Source: a virus
Lineage: Duplodnaviria > Heunggongvirae > Uroviricota > Caudoviricetes
Virus record (IMG/VR): IMGVR_UViG_3300029847_000110
Coordinates: 1-5,499 of that record
DNA: 5,499 nucleotides
Strand: one strand, 5' to 3'
Made by a program: the position numbers and the translations under genes. Shown one piece after another: positions 1 through 5,499 of the stretch. A model generated the notes under the pieces. That model saw only the letters and a program-made list of their open reading frames with translations. It was not told the DNA's origin and searched no databases. The number at the start of each line of letters is the position of its first letter. Position 1 is the first letter of the stretch.

Positions 1-1
1 T

Positions 2-23
2 AAAGCCGCGCTCAGGCGGCTTT
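2..23. terminator. Stem-loop at the distal end of the leftward operon, overlapping the stop codon of the 12..380 gene; possible terminator truncated by the window edge
   Basis: Perfect 8-bp inverted repeat aaagccgc (2-9) / gcggcttt (16-23) with a 6-nt loop, seen directly. No complete U-tract is visible inside the window, so strand and function are uncertain. Confidence 0.3.
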
Positions 24-380
24 GATAGTCATATCATCTGAATCAAATATTCCTGATGTATCGATATCGGTAATTCTTATTCCTTCACTACCATCCATTG
101 GAGGCCATCCTTCCTGACCATTTCCATCATCCCAGTCGAACTCACAAACAACACCATATGCATTTAAGTCTTTCGAAATTGCTATAAGCAGAGCATGTTG
201 CGCCAGCATGATTAATACAGCATTTAATACAGCGCCGTGTTTATTGAGTCGGTATTCAGAGTCTGACCAGAAATTATTAATCTGGTGAAGTTTTTCCTCT
301 GTCATTACGTCATGGTCGATTTCAATTTCTATTGATGCTTTCCAGTCGTAATCAATGATGTATTTTTTGATGTTTGACAT
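12..380 (-). CDS. Hypothetical very acidic small protein (122 aa), distal gene of the leftward pL-type operon
   Basis: Intact ORF with ATG at 380 and GAGGA Shine-Dalgarno about 9 nt upstream. About 23 Asp/Glu versus about 9 Lys/Arg, with an acidic C-terminal third (EFDWDDGNGQEGWPPMDGSEGIRITDIDTSGIFDSDDM). No family recognised from memory; length and position resemble lambda ea10 but I cannot verify that sequence. Confidence 0.7.
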   Translation of the reverse strand: MSNIKKYIIDYDWKASIEIEIDHDVMTEEKLHQINNFWSDSEYRLNKHGAVLNAVLIMLAQHALLIAISKDLNAYGVVCEFDWDDGNGQEGWPPMDGSEGIRITDIDTSGIFDSDDMTIKAA

Positions 381-398
381 CTATTCATATCCTCATAG

Positions 399-426
399 AT
401 AAAAAATCGCCCTCACATTGGAGGGC
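399..426 (-). terminator. Rho-independent terminator (minus strand) immediately upstream of the 122-aa gene
   Basis: Stem gccctc (409-414) / gagggc (421-426) with a 6-nt loop; on the minus strand it is followed by GATTTTTTATC (plus-strand A-run 401-406). It sits about 20 nt upstream of the RBS of the 12..380 gene. Confidence 0.6.
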
Positions 427-488
427 AAAGAAGATTTCCAATAATCAGAACAAGTCGGCTCCTGTTTAGTTACGAGCGACATTGCTCC

Positions 489-516
489 GTGTATTCACTC
501 GTTGGAATGAATACAC
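489..516. repeat. Perfect 9-bp inverted repeat (gtgtattca / tgaatacac, 10-nt loop) in the intergenic gap between two terminators
   Basis: Seen directly. It lies in a ~115-bp non-coding stretch (429..544) with no convincing ORF; could be an RNA structure or a protein-binding palindrome. Confidence 0.5.
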
Positions 517-544
517 AGTGCAGTGTTTATTCTCTTGTTTATGC

Positions 545-570
545 CAAAAATAAAGGCCGAATATTCGGCT
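545..570 (-). terminator. Candidate rho-independent terminator (minus strand) directly after the 62-aa ORF stop
   Basis: Palindrome GCCGAATATTCGGC (556-569) followed on the minus strand by CTTTATTTTTGG. The stem is short with a tight loop, so confidence is moderate. Confidence 0.45.
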
Positions 571-759
571 TCATTCCTCAAACTTAATCTCTGCTATTTC
601 CCGGTCACCATCGCAAAACAGGTAAGATTCAGGGAACTGGTTTATAAATGAAATTATTCTTTCAATTTTAATTAGCGAATATTTCTGCTCTAATGGGTTA
701 TGCGGCTTAAACGAAGCACAGTCCAGAATCGCAGAATTGTATAAGATCCATTTGTGCAT
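571..759 (-). CDS. Hypothetical small protein (62 aa from ATG at 759; the track ORF uses a GTG at 771)
   Basis: ORF with a GGTGG Shine-Dalgarno-like motif 5 nt upstream of the ATG. It overlaps the 3' end of the upstream 285-aa gene by 53 nt in another frame, so it may be a genuine overlapping gene or spurious. Its stop abuts the terminator hairpin. Confidence 0.35.
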   Translation of the reverse strand: MHKWILYNSAILDCASFKPHNPLEQKYSLIKIERIISFINQFPESYLFCDGDREIAEIKFEE

Positions 760-1564
760 TTTTACCACCACTAGGTGTTAGTGGTGCCTCAGATAGTGGA
801 ACACCATATTTAGTAAGCCACAAATGAGGCCACTTCATTTGTATCTCTTTTTCATGCTGACATGCTCTTTCAAAATCAGATGGGACGTTATTTTTCATAT
901 AAAGCCACAGATCATCATCTCTGTTAGGGCACATCCAGCAAAGCGAGGCAGGTGGTGTAGGAAGACCATAATCCTCGACACATTGAATTGCCATCTGTTT
1001 AGTCATTAGCATTTCAATAAGTGGATAGCGCCTCTGCCACTTGCCAGTTGGGTATTTCGCTCTTCGTTTAGCCTCTTCAATGCTTATCCCCATCCAACTA
1101 TCCACTCCTCTTGCTGTAAGATACTTCTCTCCATATCTTTCATTTAAAAATCTCTGAATAACTTCAGTTTTCCACTTTATAGAACAAAATGCTGGTTGCT
1201 TTCCAGCGCACATTCCTTTTGAATCCCTTCCCTCGTATTCTGTGAAATATCCAGGTAGAGGAACGTCTGGATCAGGCCCATCAATGTCGTAGGTAGCAAA
1301 TCTACTTTTAGGAACAATCAGGTAATCAACACCCATATCTTCACAAATAGGAGCTATATATTTTTTCTGATATTCAAATACATTACTTGCCTCACGTTCT
1401 GTATCTGACATAACGATAATGTCAGGCTTTGGAAGAACGCCAGCATGTACTAAGCAGATTATTGCGTTACTTTGAGTACCACCACCGGAAGAAATAACAT
1501 TTAGTCTTTCTGGATTATGCTTGAATTCTCTTCTTGGTATGAATTTACTTGTAAATCCTGGCAT
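707..1564 (-). CDS. PAPS-reductase-like / PP-loop ATP pyrophosphatase superfamily protein (285 aa), likely with a C-terminal cysteine cluster
   Basis: Strong AAGGAG Shine-Dalgarno 6 nt upstream of ATG at 1564. N-terminal hydrophobic strand plus glycine-rich loop (LNVISSGGGTQS) resembles the SGGxDS PP-loop, followed by a strand and DTE...F motif (IIVMSDTEREASNVFEY) resembling the DTG..FPET motif of the PAPS reductase / DndC / SspD fold. Cysteines at CAGKQPAFC and CWMCPNRDD fit the Fe-S ligands of some family members. Assignment is by motif recall only. Confidence 0.75.
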   Translation of the reverse strand: MPGFTSKFIPRREFKHNPERLNVISSGGGTQSNAIICLVHAGVLPKPDIIVMSDTEREASNVFEYQKKYIAPICEDMGVDYLIVPKSRFATYDIDGPDPDVPLPGYFTEYEGRDSKGMCAGKQPAFCSIKWKTEVIQRFLNERYGEKYLTARGVDSWMGISIEEAKRRAKYPTGKWQRRYPLIEMLMTKQMAIQCVEDYGLPTPPASLCWMCPNRDDDLWLYMKNNVPSDFERACQHEKEIQMKWPHLWLTKYGVPLSEAPLTPSGGKNAQMDLIQFCDSGLCFV

Positions 1565-1565
1565 G

Positions 1566-1697
1566 TTATCTCCTTGTCTTTACAATTTGATAATCCTGAC
1601 CTGTTTGTTTAGCGTATTGCTCAGCCTGTTCTTTTGTTTTGAAAGAGTTTCCGCAAACCCATCTACCGCAACTTCTGTATTGAATTTGGTAGCTCAT
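1566..1697 (-). CDS. Small hypothetical protein (43 aa, MSYQIQYRSCGRWVCGNSFKTKEQAEQYAKQTGQDYQIVKTRR), translationally coupled to the downstream PAPS-reductase-like gene
   Basis: Not in the supplied ORF track (below its size cutoff). ATG at 1697 is preceded by GAGGGG inside the last codons of N. Its TAA stop (1568-1566) is 1 nt from the ATG of the next gene and its 3' end supplies that gene's AAGGAG RBS. Two cysteines in a C-x4-C arrangement. Confidence 0.45.
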   Translation of the reverse strand: MSYQIQYRSCGRWVCGNSFKTKEQAEQYAKQTGQDYQIVKTRR

Positions 1698-1700
1698 ATC

Positions 1701-2034
1701 TCACCCCTCATACAGTGGTTTGCTGCCTAATTTCATTTTCTGGCGACCAACACAAGTCACACCCATTTCACTGCGTGGCTTGCTGTACCATGTGCGCTGA
1801 TTCTTGCGCTCAATACGTTGCAGGTTGCTTTCAATCTGTTCGTGGTATTCAGCCAGCACCGTAAGGTCTATCGGATTCAGTGCGCTTTCTACTCGTGATT
1901 TCGGTTTGCGATTCAGCGAGAGAATAGGGCGGTTAACTGGTTTTGCGCTTACCCCAACCAACAGGGGATTTGCTGNNNNNNNNNNNNNNNNNNNNCTCTG
2001 CGCGACGTTCGCGGCGGCGTGTTTGTGCATCCAT
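1701..2034 (-). CDS. N: Lambda-type antitermination protein N (about 110 aa), interrupted by a 20-nt run of N
   Basis: Minus strand from 2034 reads ATGGATGCACAAACACGCCGCCGCGAACGTCGCGCAGAG = MDAQTRRRERRAE (the arginine-rich motif). After the gap the frame gives ANPLLVGVSAKPVNRPILSLNRKPKSRVESALNPIDLTVLAEYH...QRIERKNQRTWYSKP, matching my recollection of lambda N. The extreme C-terminus differs from what I recall for lambda. The start and track frames disagree by 1 nt across the N-run, so the gap length is not exact. Confidence 0.9.
1976..1995. other. Run of 20 ambiguous bases (assembly gap or masked bases) inside the N coding sequence
   Basis: Literal n characters in the sequence. The flanking frames imply about 18-19 real nucleotides are missing. 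Confidence 0.95.
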
Positions 2035-2192
2035 CTGGATTCTCCTGTCAGTTAGCTTTGGTGGTGTGTGGGAGTCGTAGTCCTGAACGAAAACACCCCG
2101 CGATTGGCGCATTGGCAGCTAATCCGGATTCGCACTTCCGGCCAATGCTTCGTTTCGTATCACACACCCCAAAGCCTTCTGCTTTGAATGCT

Positions 2193-2223
2193 GCCCTTCT
2201 TCAGGGCTTAATTTTTAAGAGCG
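2193..2223 (-). promoter_or_regulatory. nutL: nutL N-utilisation site (boxA CGCTCTTA, boxB GCCCTGAAGAAGGGC)
   Basis: Minus strand reads GACGCTCTTAAAAATTAAGCCCTGAAGAAGGGCAGC. boxB is a 5-bp stem with a GAAGA loop (plus 2193-2207) and boxA is at plus 2216-2223. Matches the lambda nutL sequence as I recall it, in the expected place between pL and N. Confidence 0.85.
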
Positions 2224-2254
2224 TCACCTTCATGGTGGTCAGTGCGTCCTGCTG

Positions 2255-2335
2255 ATGGCTTAAAATTACAAGAAAGATTGTATGCTGTAAACAAGAAATA
2301 TTGTAAAAATGGGCGTGAAAAACAAACTCCATTGT
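2255..2335 (-). promoter_or_regulatory. oL/pL: leftward early promoter with three 434-type operator sites
   Basis: Three 14-bp sites of form ACAAnnnnnnTTGT at 2268-2281 (acaagaaagattgt), 2291-2304 (acaagaaatattgt) and 2322-2335 (acaaactccattgt), the same family as the oR sites. Downstream on the minus strand the leader ATCAGCAGGACGCACTGACCACCATGAAGG matches the lambda pL leader from memory. Exact -10/-35 not assigned. Confidence 0.75.
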
Positions 2336-2385
2336 TTTTAAACGGAAAATAGTTTGTTTTTTGGTTGTCGAAATCGAGGTGAGGA

Positions 2386-3738
<1,353 letters not shown>

Positions 3739-3746
3739 GACATTCC

Positions 3747-3778
3747 CGCTCTTACACATCCCAGCCCTGAAAAAGGGC
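3747..3778 (+). promoter_or_regulatory. nutR: nutR N-utilisation site (boxA CGCTCTTA at 3747-3754, boxB GCCCTGAAAAAGGGC at 3764-3778)
   Basis: CGCTCTTACACATCCCAGCCCTGAAAAAGGGC directly after the cro stop. boxB is a 5-bp stem with a GAAAA loop. Matches lambda nutR as I recall it. Confidence 0.85.
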
Positions 3779-3784
3779 ATCAAA

Positions 3785-3835
3785 TTAAACCACACCTATG
3801 GTGTATGCATTTATTTGCATACATTCAATCAATTG
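3785..3835 (+). terminator. tR1-like rho-dependent terminator region between nutR and cII
   Basis: CCACACCTATGGTGTATGCATTTATTTGCATACATTCAATCAATTG matches the lambda tR1 / cII-leader sequence from memory and contains the ATGCA...TGCAT dyad. No intrinsic terminator structure, consistent with Rho dependence. Assigned by homology of position and sequence only. Confidence 0.4.
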
Positions 3836-3857
3836 TTATCTAAGGAAATACTTACAT

Positions 3858-4136
3858 ATGCAACTTACAAGTACTCGCAAGAAAGCGAATGCAATTACAA
3901 GCAACATCCTGAATCGAATTGCTGTACGTGGTCAGCGAAAGGTTGCTGACGCGTTAGGAATTAATGAATCGCAAATTTCGCGATGGAAAGACAGCTTCAT
4001 CCCAAAAATGGGAATGCTTCTGGCTGTTCTTGAATGGGGTGTTGAAGACGAGGAGTTGGCGGAACTGGCTAAGAAAGTAGCCAGAATGCTGACAAAAGAA
4101 AAAGCCCCGAAGAACGGCGAATTCTTCGAGGCCTGA
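3858..4136 (+). CDS. cII: cII-type transcriptional activator (92 aa), divergent from lambda cII
   Basis: ATG at 3858 preceded by the lambda-type leader TAAGGAAATACTTACAT. The protein shares with lambda cII the HTH block ...SQISRWK... and the motif IPKxxMLLAVLEWGV. N- and C-termini diverge from lambda. The track ORF 3798..4136 is an upstream extension. Confidence 0.85.
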   Translation: MQLTSTRKKANAITSNILNRIAVRGQRKVADALGINESQISRWKDSFIPKMGMLLAVLEWGVEDEELAELAKKVARMLTKEKAPKNGEFFEA

Positions 4137-4161
4137 TGTAGAAAGACTGGATCAATCCACA
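4095..4161 (-). ncRNA. Candidate oop-like antisense RNA overlapping the 3' end of cII
   Basis: Minus-strand intrinsic terminator inside the cII 3' coding region: stem CGAAGAA (plus 4108-4114) / TTCTTCG (4122-4128) with a 7-nt loop, followed by GGGCTTTTTCTTTTG. A candidate extended -10 TGTCATAAT lies on the minus strand at about 4176-4168, placing the 5' end about 25 nt beyond the cII stop, as for lambda oop. No good -35. Boundaries are approximate. Confidence 0.35.
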
Positions 4162-4170
4162 GGAGTAATT

Positions 4171-4332
4171 ATGACAAAACGTCGTAAGAAATACCAGGAA
4201 AAAGAAGAGATTCGACACCCTGATTCACCTGAGGGATTAGTGGTAGCCGCAGCAAATAACAGGGCGTTCGCAGAGCGCCTTGTTGGTGTTTACAGACTAG
4301 CCAAAGCAGGAGTGAAACATGGGCGTCGTTAA
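4171..4332 (+). CDS. Small basic hypothetical protein (53 aa, MTKRRKKYQEKEEIRHPDSPEGLVVAAANNRAFAERLVGVYRLAKAGVKHGRR) between cII and the replication gene
   Basis: Not in the supplied track (below its size cutoff). AGGAG Shine-Dalgarno 5 nt upstream of ATG 4171. The stop overlaps the first codons of the O-like gene by 14 nt. Confidence 0.45.
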   Translation: MTKRRKKYQEKEEIRHPDSPEGLVVAAANNRAFAERLVGVYRLAKAGVKHGRR

Positions 4333-5209
4333 GTTAGCTGATTACAGGCATAACCCTGTACAACATCAGGAGGCATCCAGTATGGGGTATGTCTCTATAC
4401 ACCGCCAGTTTATGGACAGCAGGCTCTATAAGGACTCTCAGGCAGTACATCTTTGGCTTCACTTAATCCTCAAGGCTAATCACGAATCTACTGTCGTCAA
4501 TACGGATATCGGTCCGATAACTGTTGATCGCGGTCAGATGATAACTGGACGCCCGTCGCTGGTCAGAGAAACATTCATCCCCGACAACAAAGTTCGGAGC
4601 TTATTACGGACTTTTGAGTCGAAAGGGATGCTTAATATTTGCTCGATGGGGAAGAAATTTAGCCTGTTTACAATCGTTAAATATGATGATTTTCAGGCAA
4701 AAAATTGTCCAACGGTTGTCCAACGGTTGTCCAACGCAAACACCAGTAATGGCGCGGCTCTCAGCGGAGATTGTCCAACGGTTGTCCAACGGTTGTCCAT
4801 AAACAATAATATAAATAATATCTCTAATACTGACGTATTAGAGAGTGCCACAGCAGACAAAAAGTCTGACAAGAAAAAACCTTCCGTTAGCTGTCAGGAT
4901 GTTGTCGATGCTTACCACGAAATCCTTCCTGAAGCGCCAAGAATCCGCGCACTGAATGACAAGCGTAAAAACCAGATCCGAACGTTCTGGCGCAAAGCCG
5001 GAGTGATAACCCGCCAGCTTGACGGGCATGGGTTCACGATGCAGGACTGGAGAAATTATTTGAGCTACGTAGGCGAAAATTGCCGATGGATGTTCGAAGA
5101 GCGCCCAAACCATCAACGCGGAACCGTCTGGCACAAAAAGGGATTTGATTTCCTGCTTAACGATAATACCTACCTGAAAGTTCGTGAGGGTGAACACGAT
5201 GACCGATAA
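4319..5209 (+). CDS. Replication initiator protein (lambda O functional analogue, 296 aa) with the origin embedded in its coding sequence
   Basis: Long ORF directly upstream of a DnaB-type helicase gene with overlapping stop/start. It contains two clusters of 11-bp iterons and an adjacent AT-rich palindrome mid-gene, the hallmark of lambdoid O genes. AGGAG RBS before ATG 4319; an alternative start at ATG 4382 (AGGAGG 8 nt upstream) cannot be excluded. Not lambda O by sequence. Confidence 0.85.
   Translation: MGVVKLADYRHNPVQHQEASSMGYVSIHRQFMDSRLYKDSQAVHLWLHLILKANHESTVVNTDIGPITVDRGQMITGRPSLVRETFIPDNKVRSLLRTFESKGMLNICSMGKKFSLFTIVKYDDFQAKNCPTVVQRLSNANTSNGAALSGDCPTVVQRLSINNNINNISNTDVLESATADKKSDKKKPSVSCQDVVDAYHEILPEAPRIRALNDKRKNQIRTFWRKAGVITRQLDGHGFTMQDWRNYLSYVGENCRWMFEERPNHQRGTVWHKKGFDFLLNDNTYLKVREGEHDDR
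4705..4800. repeat. Origin iterons: two clusters of tandem 11-bp direct repeats TTGTCCAACGG (4705-4737, three copies; 4771-4800, about 2.7 copies) separated by 33 bp
   Basis: Seen directly: ttgtccaacggttgtccaacggttgtccaacgc ... ttgtccaacggttgtccaacggttgtccat. The period is about one helical turn. In frame they encode the repeated peptide CPTVVQRLS. Confidence 0.9.
4801..4844. other. AT-rich stretch plus perfect 10-bp inverted repeat adjacent to the iterons (candidate DNA-unwinding element of ori)
   Basis: aaacaataatataaataata (4801-4820) is nearly pure A/T. It is followed by tctctaatac (4821-4830) / gtattagaga (4835-4844), a perfect inverted repeat with a 4-nt spacer. Confidence 0.7.
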
Positions 5210-5499
5210 TTTTTATGCGCCGCCCCATAGCATCGAGGCAGAGCAGGCGGTGATTGGTGGATTGCTTCTGGATGATGACAGCAGTGAGCGCGTCCAGAAA
5301 GTTCTGGCGATGCTGAAGCCTGATTCATTTTACAGCCGGCCACACAAAATCCTTTTCGAAGAAATAACCAGAATGCACCGGGAGCAAAAGCCAGTAGATG
5401 GCCTGACGCTTTTCGATGAACTGGAGCGTAAATCGTTAACTGTGTCTGTTGGCGGTTTTGCTTATATCGCTGAGATCGCAAAGAACACGCCAAGCGCCG
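5199..5499 (+). CDS. DnaB-family replicative DNA helicase, N-terminal part (continues beyond the window)
   Basis: ATG at 5199 overlaps the O-like stop by 11 nt, with GAGGG 8 nt upstream. Translation MTDNFYAPPHSIEAEQAVIGGLLLDDDSSERVQKV...SFYSRPHKILFEEITRMHREQKPVDGLTLFDELERKSLTVSVGGFAYIAEIAKNTPSA matches the conserved DnaB N-terminal domain (E. coli DnaB: PPHSIEAEQSVLGG...DFYTRPHRHIF...VGGFAYLAELSKNTPSA). Absent from the supplied track because the ORF is open at the window edge. Confidence 0.9.
   Translation, partial: MTDNFYAPPHSIEAEQAVIGGLLLDDDSSERVQKVLAMLKPDSFYSRPHKILFEEITRMHREQKPVDGLTLFDELERKSLTVSVGGFAYIAEIAKNTPSA

Follow-up and report, generated by a model that had tools for sequence, protein, structure and literature searches.

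An acidic protein encoded behind a terminator in a lambdoid early left operon: identity, expression and possible role of Ea10 (DUF2528)

What is the role of a small, strongly acidic protein whose gene stands directly behind an intrinsic terminator, at the far-left end of the leftward pL operon of a lambdoid phage or prophage? The question is raised by a stretch of 5,499 nt of viral DNA (positions 1 to 5,499 of IMG/VR record IMGVR_UViG_3300029847_000110, Caudoviricetes; hereafter, the window), which covers an early control region. The original prediction, made from the letters of the sequence without database searches, took the 122-aa ORF at this position for a DNA mimic of the Ocr/ArdA type, active against restriction or other host defences and made only early in lytic growth, through N-mediated antitermination from pL. 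Here, the identity of the gene, the signals that surround it, the family to which its product belongs and the functions that have been or might be ascribed to that product are considered in turn.

Identity of the reading frame and its surroundings

By homology, the ORF is shown to be ea10 of a lambdoid prophage or phage that combines 434-type immunity with lambda-type N and nutL (Table 1). The encoded protein, which begins at an ATG at 380..378, is identical to lambda Ea10 (lambdap45, NP_040621) at 119 of its 122 residues with zero gaps, the substitutions (lambda residue first) being S50A, S70K and N84D, and its identity to the annotated Ea10 of phage mEpX2 is 100%. The match to the Pfam family PF10800 (DUF2528) spans model positions 1-104 of 104, with an E-value of 4e-46 and a score of 156.2 bits against a cutoff of 22, whilst PHROG 646 ('unknown function') is matched over the full length (E 8e-70); the RefSeq name of the protein is 'DUF2528 family protein'. 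Lambda Ea10 had been given in the original prediction as an example of a finding that would refute it, as a recombination or ssDNA-binding protein. It is this very protein that the window encodes, yet the 'ssDNA-binding' label of Ea10 is itself unsupported, as discussed below.

At the DNA level, positions 1..573 share 98.8% identity with mEpX2, and more than 300 lambdoid and Stx phages align with them at 95-99%; of 5426 complete E. coli genomes, 2299 contain matches to the ea10 region. Judged by alignment, mEpX2 is the nearest deposited relative over the ea10 segment. Lambda and the window have in common a 122-aa Ea10, its ribosome-binding site, the terminator tL2a, the LPR1/PreS sequence and the pL-N-nutL control region, and ea10 occupies the same operon position, directly downstream of tL2a, with the upstream part base for base as in lambda. 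The genes cIII and kil, which lie downstream of ea10 in lambda and mEpX2, fall beyond the window edge. Both ea10 and tL2a were described in the early 1980s, and ea10 behind tL2a is an already known object rather than a new one.

The window differs from lambda in its immunity, which is of 434 type whereas lambda has its own, and in what lies upstream of the shared block, where lambda carries ral, orf28 and sieB and the window a 285-aa PAPS-reductase-like ORF and a 43-aa ORF. It further encodes cII and an O-like replication gene with iterons; the TGTCCAACGGTTGTCCAAC repeat units within the latter are presumably origin iterons, as in the lambda ori.

Table 1. Positions of ea10 and of the features around it, in the window unless another locus is named
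Feature	Position	Strand	Basis
Hairpin across the ea10 stop codon	2..23		
ea10 CDS, DUF2528 family, 122 aa + stop	12..380	-	ORF list, lambda Ea10 identity, PF10800, PHROG 646
Shine-Dalgarno GAGGA, 9 nt before ATG	390..394	-	upstream sequence; kept in lambda and mEpX2
Intrinsic terminator tL2a, 8-bp stem, 6-nt loop, U6	401..428	-	terminator scan, RNA fold, lambda identity
LPR1/PreS homologue, 5' end approximate (by length only)	401..490	-	lambda identity save one terminator-loop base
9-bp inverted repeat	489..516	-	
Second terminator-like hairpin GCCGAATATTCGGC, then T-rich tail	556..569	-	terminator scan
285-aa ORF	707..1564	-	
43-aa Cys-containing ORF	1566..1697	-	
Antiterminator gene N, lambda type	1701..2037	-	alignment with lambda pL-N; ORF fragments MDAQTRRRERRAE..., ...ANPLLVGVSAKPVNRP...
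nutL: boxB GCCCTGAAGAAGGGC (2193..2207) and boxA CGCTCTTAA (2216..2224)	2193..2224	-	lambda-identical block
pL/OL region	2258..2335	-	lambda homology begins at pL transcript start, near 2257
ACAA-N6-TTGT 14-mers, 434-type operator-like	2268..2281, 2291..2304, 2322..2335		
158-aa ORF	2386..2862	-	
434-type cI	2787..3419	-	window gene content
Cro, 434 type	3523..3738	+	window gene content
nutR boxB	3764..3778		
Repeat units in the O-like replication gene	4706..4800	+	
DUF2528 gene outside lambdoid phages	L009 5001..5342; further loci L005, L006, L007, L010, L011, L012		

Three further ORFs of the control region are recorded here as observations in their own right. The 285-aa ORF, situated between N and ea10, matches PHROG 424 ('PAPS reductase', E 5e-35) and, weakly, SspD of the PADLOC library (E 3e-7); it is only 21% identical to lambda NinC and has no Pfam or NCBIfam match at the E-value limits used. 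The region 560-1700 has no megablast match among 50,697 phage records and is 99% identical to hypothetical genes of a few E. coli chromosomes. This ORF may be a DNA-modification or counter-defence moron carried in the pL operon. The 43-aa ORF, which comes directly after N, has a weak match to PHROG 15891 and sub-threshold zinc-finger-like Pfam matches. Between cI and pL, at the position of rexAB in lambda, lies a 158-aa ORF with a match to PHROG 2651 (unknown function). Near its N-terminus is a hydrophobic stretch that ends in Cys and resembles a lipoprotein signal; as listed, the ORF shares sequence with the 3' end of cI, and its true start is therefore probably internal.

Terminator, small RNA and expression of ea10

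A strong terminator had been predicted about 20 nt upstream of the ribosome-binding site. The terminator itself is borne out: the terminator scan finds a stem-loop of 8 pairs (428..407), 5 of them G-C, followed by TTTTTT at 406..401, and the RNA fold has an energy of -12.9 kcal/mol (z = -4.0), with none of 200 shuffles as good. The end of the U-tract (401) lies 6 nt upstream of the Shine-Dalgarno sequence and 20 nt upstream of the ATG, and the predicted spacing is approximately right only when taken from the hairpin centre. The accompanying claim that no promoter lies between terminator and gene agrees with the promoter scan, which gave zero sigma-70-like sites on the minus strand, both from the terminator to the ATG and in the whole of 381..700.

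Apart from one loop base, the terminator is that of lambda tL2a, with which it has the hairpin-plus-U6 architecture in common; on sequence, the two show no functional difference. Near base-for-base conservation in the window, lambda and mEpX2 extends from just past the lambda ral stop codon through ea10, such that about 170 nt upstream of the ATG, including tL2a and LPR1 (PreS), are as in lambda, minus that loop base and a few leader bases. The lambda early-left hairpin named tL2a is also the 3' end of the sRNA LPR1, an Hfq-bound RNA of about 88 nt, later named PreS, which is confined to the lytic cycle and up-regulates host dnaN (bioRxiv 10.1101/2024.10.31.621285). On the strength of this near identity, tL2a of the window is taken to carry the same second and already published role, as the 3' end of an Hfq-dependent sRNA. 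A 101-nt stretch (395..495) that contains the LPR1/PreS homologue folds at z -4.0, and an Rfam search of the whole window at E<=1 returned zero families, LPR1/PreS having no model there.

Other inverted repeats flank these elements. Just upstream of the inferred 5' end of LPR1/PreS, a 9-bp repeat (GTGTATTCA...TGAATACAC) is fully conserved in lambda and mEpX2 and could be a processing site or a further member of the tL2 cluster. The block shared with lambda has its left edge at the second terminator-like hairpin, as seen when the window is aligned to lambda and mEpX2, and lambda has the end of ral at this point. At the opposite end of ea10, AAAGCCGC-CTGAGC-GCGGCTTT forms an 8-bp hairpin that spans the stop codon and is without a U-tract; its pairing is kept in lambda via two G-U wobbles, and it may serve in RNA processing or stability where ea10 adjoins cIII.

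The elements that would govern read-through of tL2a are likewise present in the window. Gene N, of the lambda/434 type, looks frameshifted in the ORF list, since 20 masked letters (N, 1976..1995) take the place of 19 nt of lambda N. The boxB of nutL is an exact match, with 0.01 expected by chance, and a nutR boxB is also found. The pL/OL block is matched by phage 434 and by lambda imm434, and the cI and Cro of the window are of 434 type; from the known 434 operator consensus, the three 14-mers in this block are probably the 434-type OL operators.

Given the identity of tL2a and the lambda type of both nutL and N, expression of ea10 by N-antiterminated transcription from pL corresponds to the established lambda mechanism, and N-dependent read-through of tL2a into ea10 can be expected in the window with high confidence by homology. 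Transcription would begin at pL and N would load at nutL, after which the N-modified polymerase would pass tL2a and reach the ribosome-binding site of ea10; without N, the tL2a hairpin would halt transcription. Accorded this control, ea10 would belong to the early lytic genes that depend on N. The literature describes its product as abundant, Ea10 being made in such quantity from pL that it was once taken for the kil product. What the original prediction had proposed about antitermination is thus supported by the lambda-type signals in the window, and N-dependent read-through from pL for ea10 is textbook lambda biology and already known.

Predicted fold, acidity and distribution of DUF2528

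An AlphaFold2 model of Ea10, built on a 58-sequence alignment, was obtained with a pLDDT of 95.5 and a pTM of 0.87. In this model, a beta-hairpin (residues 4-22) is followed by helices (28-79), a long loop (80-100) and a strand (101-107); one of the four predicted helices (51-70) is fully hydrophobic and would form the core. The model shows Ea10 as a compact single-domain alpha/beta protein without a detectable relative of known function. Foldseek comparison of the model with the PDB gave zero matches at E<=0.001, and comparison with BFVD a single match, to an uncharacterised 121-aa phage protein. Neither the single protein nor the family profile gave a significant match in sequence searches of the PDB, and NCBIfam has no model for Ea10. 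The model was also compared at the fold level with the SPFH/Band-7 domain (HflK/C, stomatin, flotillin, prohibitin).

The most conserved element of the protein is a Gly/Trp/Pro-rich loop, EGWPPMDGSEGI (E90-G-W-P-P-M-D96-G-S98-E-G-I, residues 90-101), and the invariant set of DUF2528 comprises Y7, D22, F37, W38, R44, L56, F81, E90, G91, D96, G97, S98, G100 and I101. The conserved loop, taken together with Y7, D22, F37, W38 and R44, resembles one discrete site, for docking or for catalysis, more than an array that mimics phosphates.

The acidity from which the DNA-mimic reading arose is confirmed by calculation. Ea10 of the window has a pI of 4.31 and a net charge of -14 (23 Asp+Glu versus 9 Lys+Arg), and its C-terminal third is Asp-rich as had been described, the last 41 residues containing 9 Asp with a net charge of -9. 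This acidity is real, not extreme. The charge per residue of -0.115 is half the density of Ocr (-0.239), and Ea10 ranks fifth of 72 lambda proteins in this measure, the four ahead of it being orf28, NinF, tail protein U (-0.153) and orf206b, whilst tail protein T is about as acidic (-0.111). Among 58 full-length homologues the pI ranges from 4.05 to 4.79 and the net charge from -8 to -20, whilst 120 distant representatives (24-53% identity) have a median net charge of -13, with 118 of them at -5 or below. Across distant DUF2528 members the only fixed acidic positions are D22, E90 and D96, the others being free to drift. Retention of net charge during drift of the acidic positions is the pattern expected under selection for charge, and this conserved family acidity speaks most strongly for an acidic-decoy mechanism.

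A DUF2528 profile search over 1.84 billion cluster representatives (cut-off E<=1e-3) returned 576 representatives, almost all of them stand-alone proteins of 110-140 aa. Domain fusions were not found among the longer members, whose N-terminal extensions carry no Pfam domain. Every sampled member belongs to an early or DNA-metabolism module, whether in lambdoid phages, in Mu-like phages or in the one lytic-type phage. In lambdoid prophages the DUF2528 gene comes after N, directly so in a Rosenbergiella prophage; in Mu-like phages and prophages (Salmonella, Serratia, Oceanobacter, Burkholderia, Stenotrophomonas) it is located between MuB and Gam/GemA/Mor; and in the lytic-type contig it is flanked by a family-A DNA polymerase (PolA) and a DNA ligase. 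As far as profile matches reveal, these loci show that DUF2528 is distributed far more widely than the lambdoid phages, reaching several gammaproteobacterial and betaproteobacterial genera.

Possible functions of Ea10

Taken as a whole, the best explanation of the locus, and one considered fairly probable, joins the identity of the protein as Ea10 and its N-dependent expression to a role as an acidic, protein-binding accessory factor. The last of these elements is itself put forward tentatively, at rather less than an even chance, in the form that Ea10 acts stoichiometrically and early in infection. The conserved net charge and the early or DNA-metabolism gene context fit an abundant early accessory factor that binds protein. 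Contact would be made by the loop E90-I101, with D22, F37/W38 and R44, on a basic surface of a nucleic-acid-handling protein of host or phage origin, and such docking early in infection would serve host takeover or counter-defence. The lambda two-hybrid map reports one single Ea10 interaction. By CRISPRi mapping, ea10 is non-essential in lambda, and the gene is routinely deleted, interrupted or used for insertions in laboratory strains, with no effect reported. A search of the literature on Ea10 and DUF2528 found no functional study, the protein being described only as 'not fully understood', non-essential and abundantly produced. Mimicry of the SSB C-terminal tail by the C-terminal segment FDSDDM was considered separately and set aside, as this segment does not form the very end of the chain, is folded in the model and shows only partial conservation across the broad family.

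The conserved site could instead belong to a small metal-dependent enzyme, a hydrolase or an enzyme that modifies nucleotides or nucleic acids, with D22, E90, D96, S98 and R44 in its active site, although this is thought unlikely. Three invariant carboxylates accompanied by a Ser, an Arg and a Gly-rich loop are retained in DUF2528 down to 24% identity, as a catalytic centre might be, and the His of an EIDH(D) motif is nearly invariant among closer members; in the broad family, however, this residue (H23) varies. Residence in DNA-metabolism modules, beside PolA and ligase or, in Burkholderia phage vB_E430, with a pyrophosphatase neighbour, would also suit an enzyme, but no enzyme family matches Ea10 in Pfam, NCBIfam or PDB profile searches. 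Moreover, the high abundance of Ea10 better suits a stoichiometric binder than a catalyst, and 122 aa with one hydrophobic core helix would, according to the model, leave small room for a substrate pocket.

Two readings turn on nucleic-acid mimicry. In the first, regarded as rather unlikely, DUF2528/Ea10 would be an acidic decoy of new fold, a nucleic-acid mimic that neutralises a conserved DNA-binding factor of host defence or repair. The second, which is the function originally predicted and is judged improbable, holds that Ea10 is an Ocr/ArdA-like DNA mimic whose DNA-like carboxylate array ties up a DNA-binding defence complex, be it Type I R-M, BREX or another. Like T7 Ocr (gene 0.3) and ArdA, Ea10 is a small, acidic, early protein of the kind found in phages and plasmids; it is abundant, its family keeps a negative charge in the 120 distant homologues while acidic positions drift, and its gene sits in accessory early regions that gather counter-defence genes, ral and gam among them. 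Known DNA mimics have folds unrelated to each other, so that the absent fold similarity leaves room for mimicry as such.

The comparison with Ocr and ArdA nevertheless yielded no positive support, in sequence, profile or fold. Alignment of the DUF2528 family profile with T7 Ocr by hhalign gave a probability of 0.2%, and none of the 58 members matches the Pfam models of Ocr (PF08684) or ArdA (PF07275), even at E<=10; neither sequence homology to ArdA nor its elongated three-domain fold is found in Ea10, and the PADLOC defence library contains no match to it. Ocr and ArdA present an elongated carboxylate array, whereas Ea10 is predicted to be a compact alpha/beta domain with a conserved loop. 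The strongest conservation falls on this Gly/Trp/Pro loop and on hydrophobic core residues rather than on an acidic array, and the charge density is half that of Ocr, with lambda tail protein U more acidic and tail protein T about as acidic, as given above. In addition, a restriction-alleviation protein, Ral, is already encoded by lambda two genes upstream of ea10, and lambda restriction alleviation maps to ral, away from ea10. Ea10 as a relative of Ocr or ArdA is excluded.

Finally, the legacy view that Ea10 is an ssDNA-binding protein ('ssb') aiding Red-mediated recombination or replication is highly improbable. In its favour are the label 'ea10 (ssb;122)' in the original lambda record J02459, since copied into many phage records, the operon that ea10 shares with gam, bet and exo, and the occurrence of DUF2528 members near Gam, RdgC-like, RecT and replication genes. 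Against it, so acidic a protein could not offer the classical surface for binding ssDNA; the model (beta-hairpin, four helices, one strand) has no predicted OB fold and no SSB among its structural matches; Pfam SSB does not match Ea10; and the mEpX2 operon has a genuine SSB gene in addition to ea10. Current RefSeq/PGAP annotation has dropped the label for 'DUF2528' or 'hypothetical protein', and no experimental paper backing it was found in the searchable literature; the inherited label is not credible. Ea10 is thus most probably not an SSB, just as it is no relative of Ocr or ArdA.

The object itself is of small importance, being lambda ea10 behind tL2a, carried by a large share of E. coli genomes. 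Its residual interest is that Ea10 is an abundant early lambda protein still without an assigned function. An acidic decoy, if true, would supply the function of a lambda gene that has been an orphan for 40 years and define a class common to lambdoid, Mu-like and some lytic phages. Conserved acidity and one invariant loop, on an apparently orphan fold, offer a concrete and testable start on this old question.
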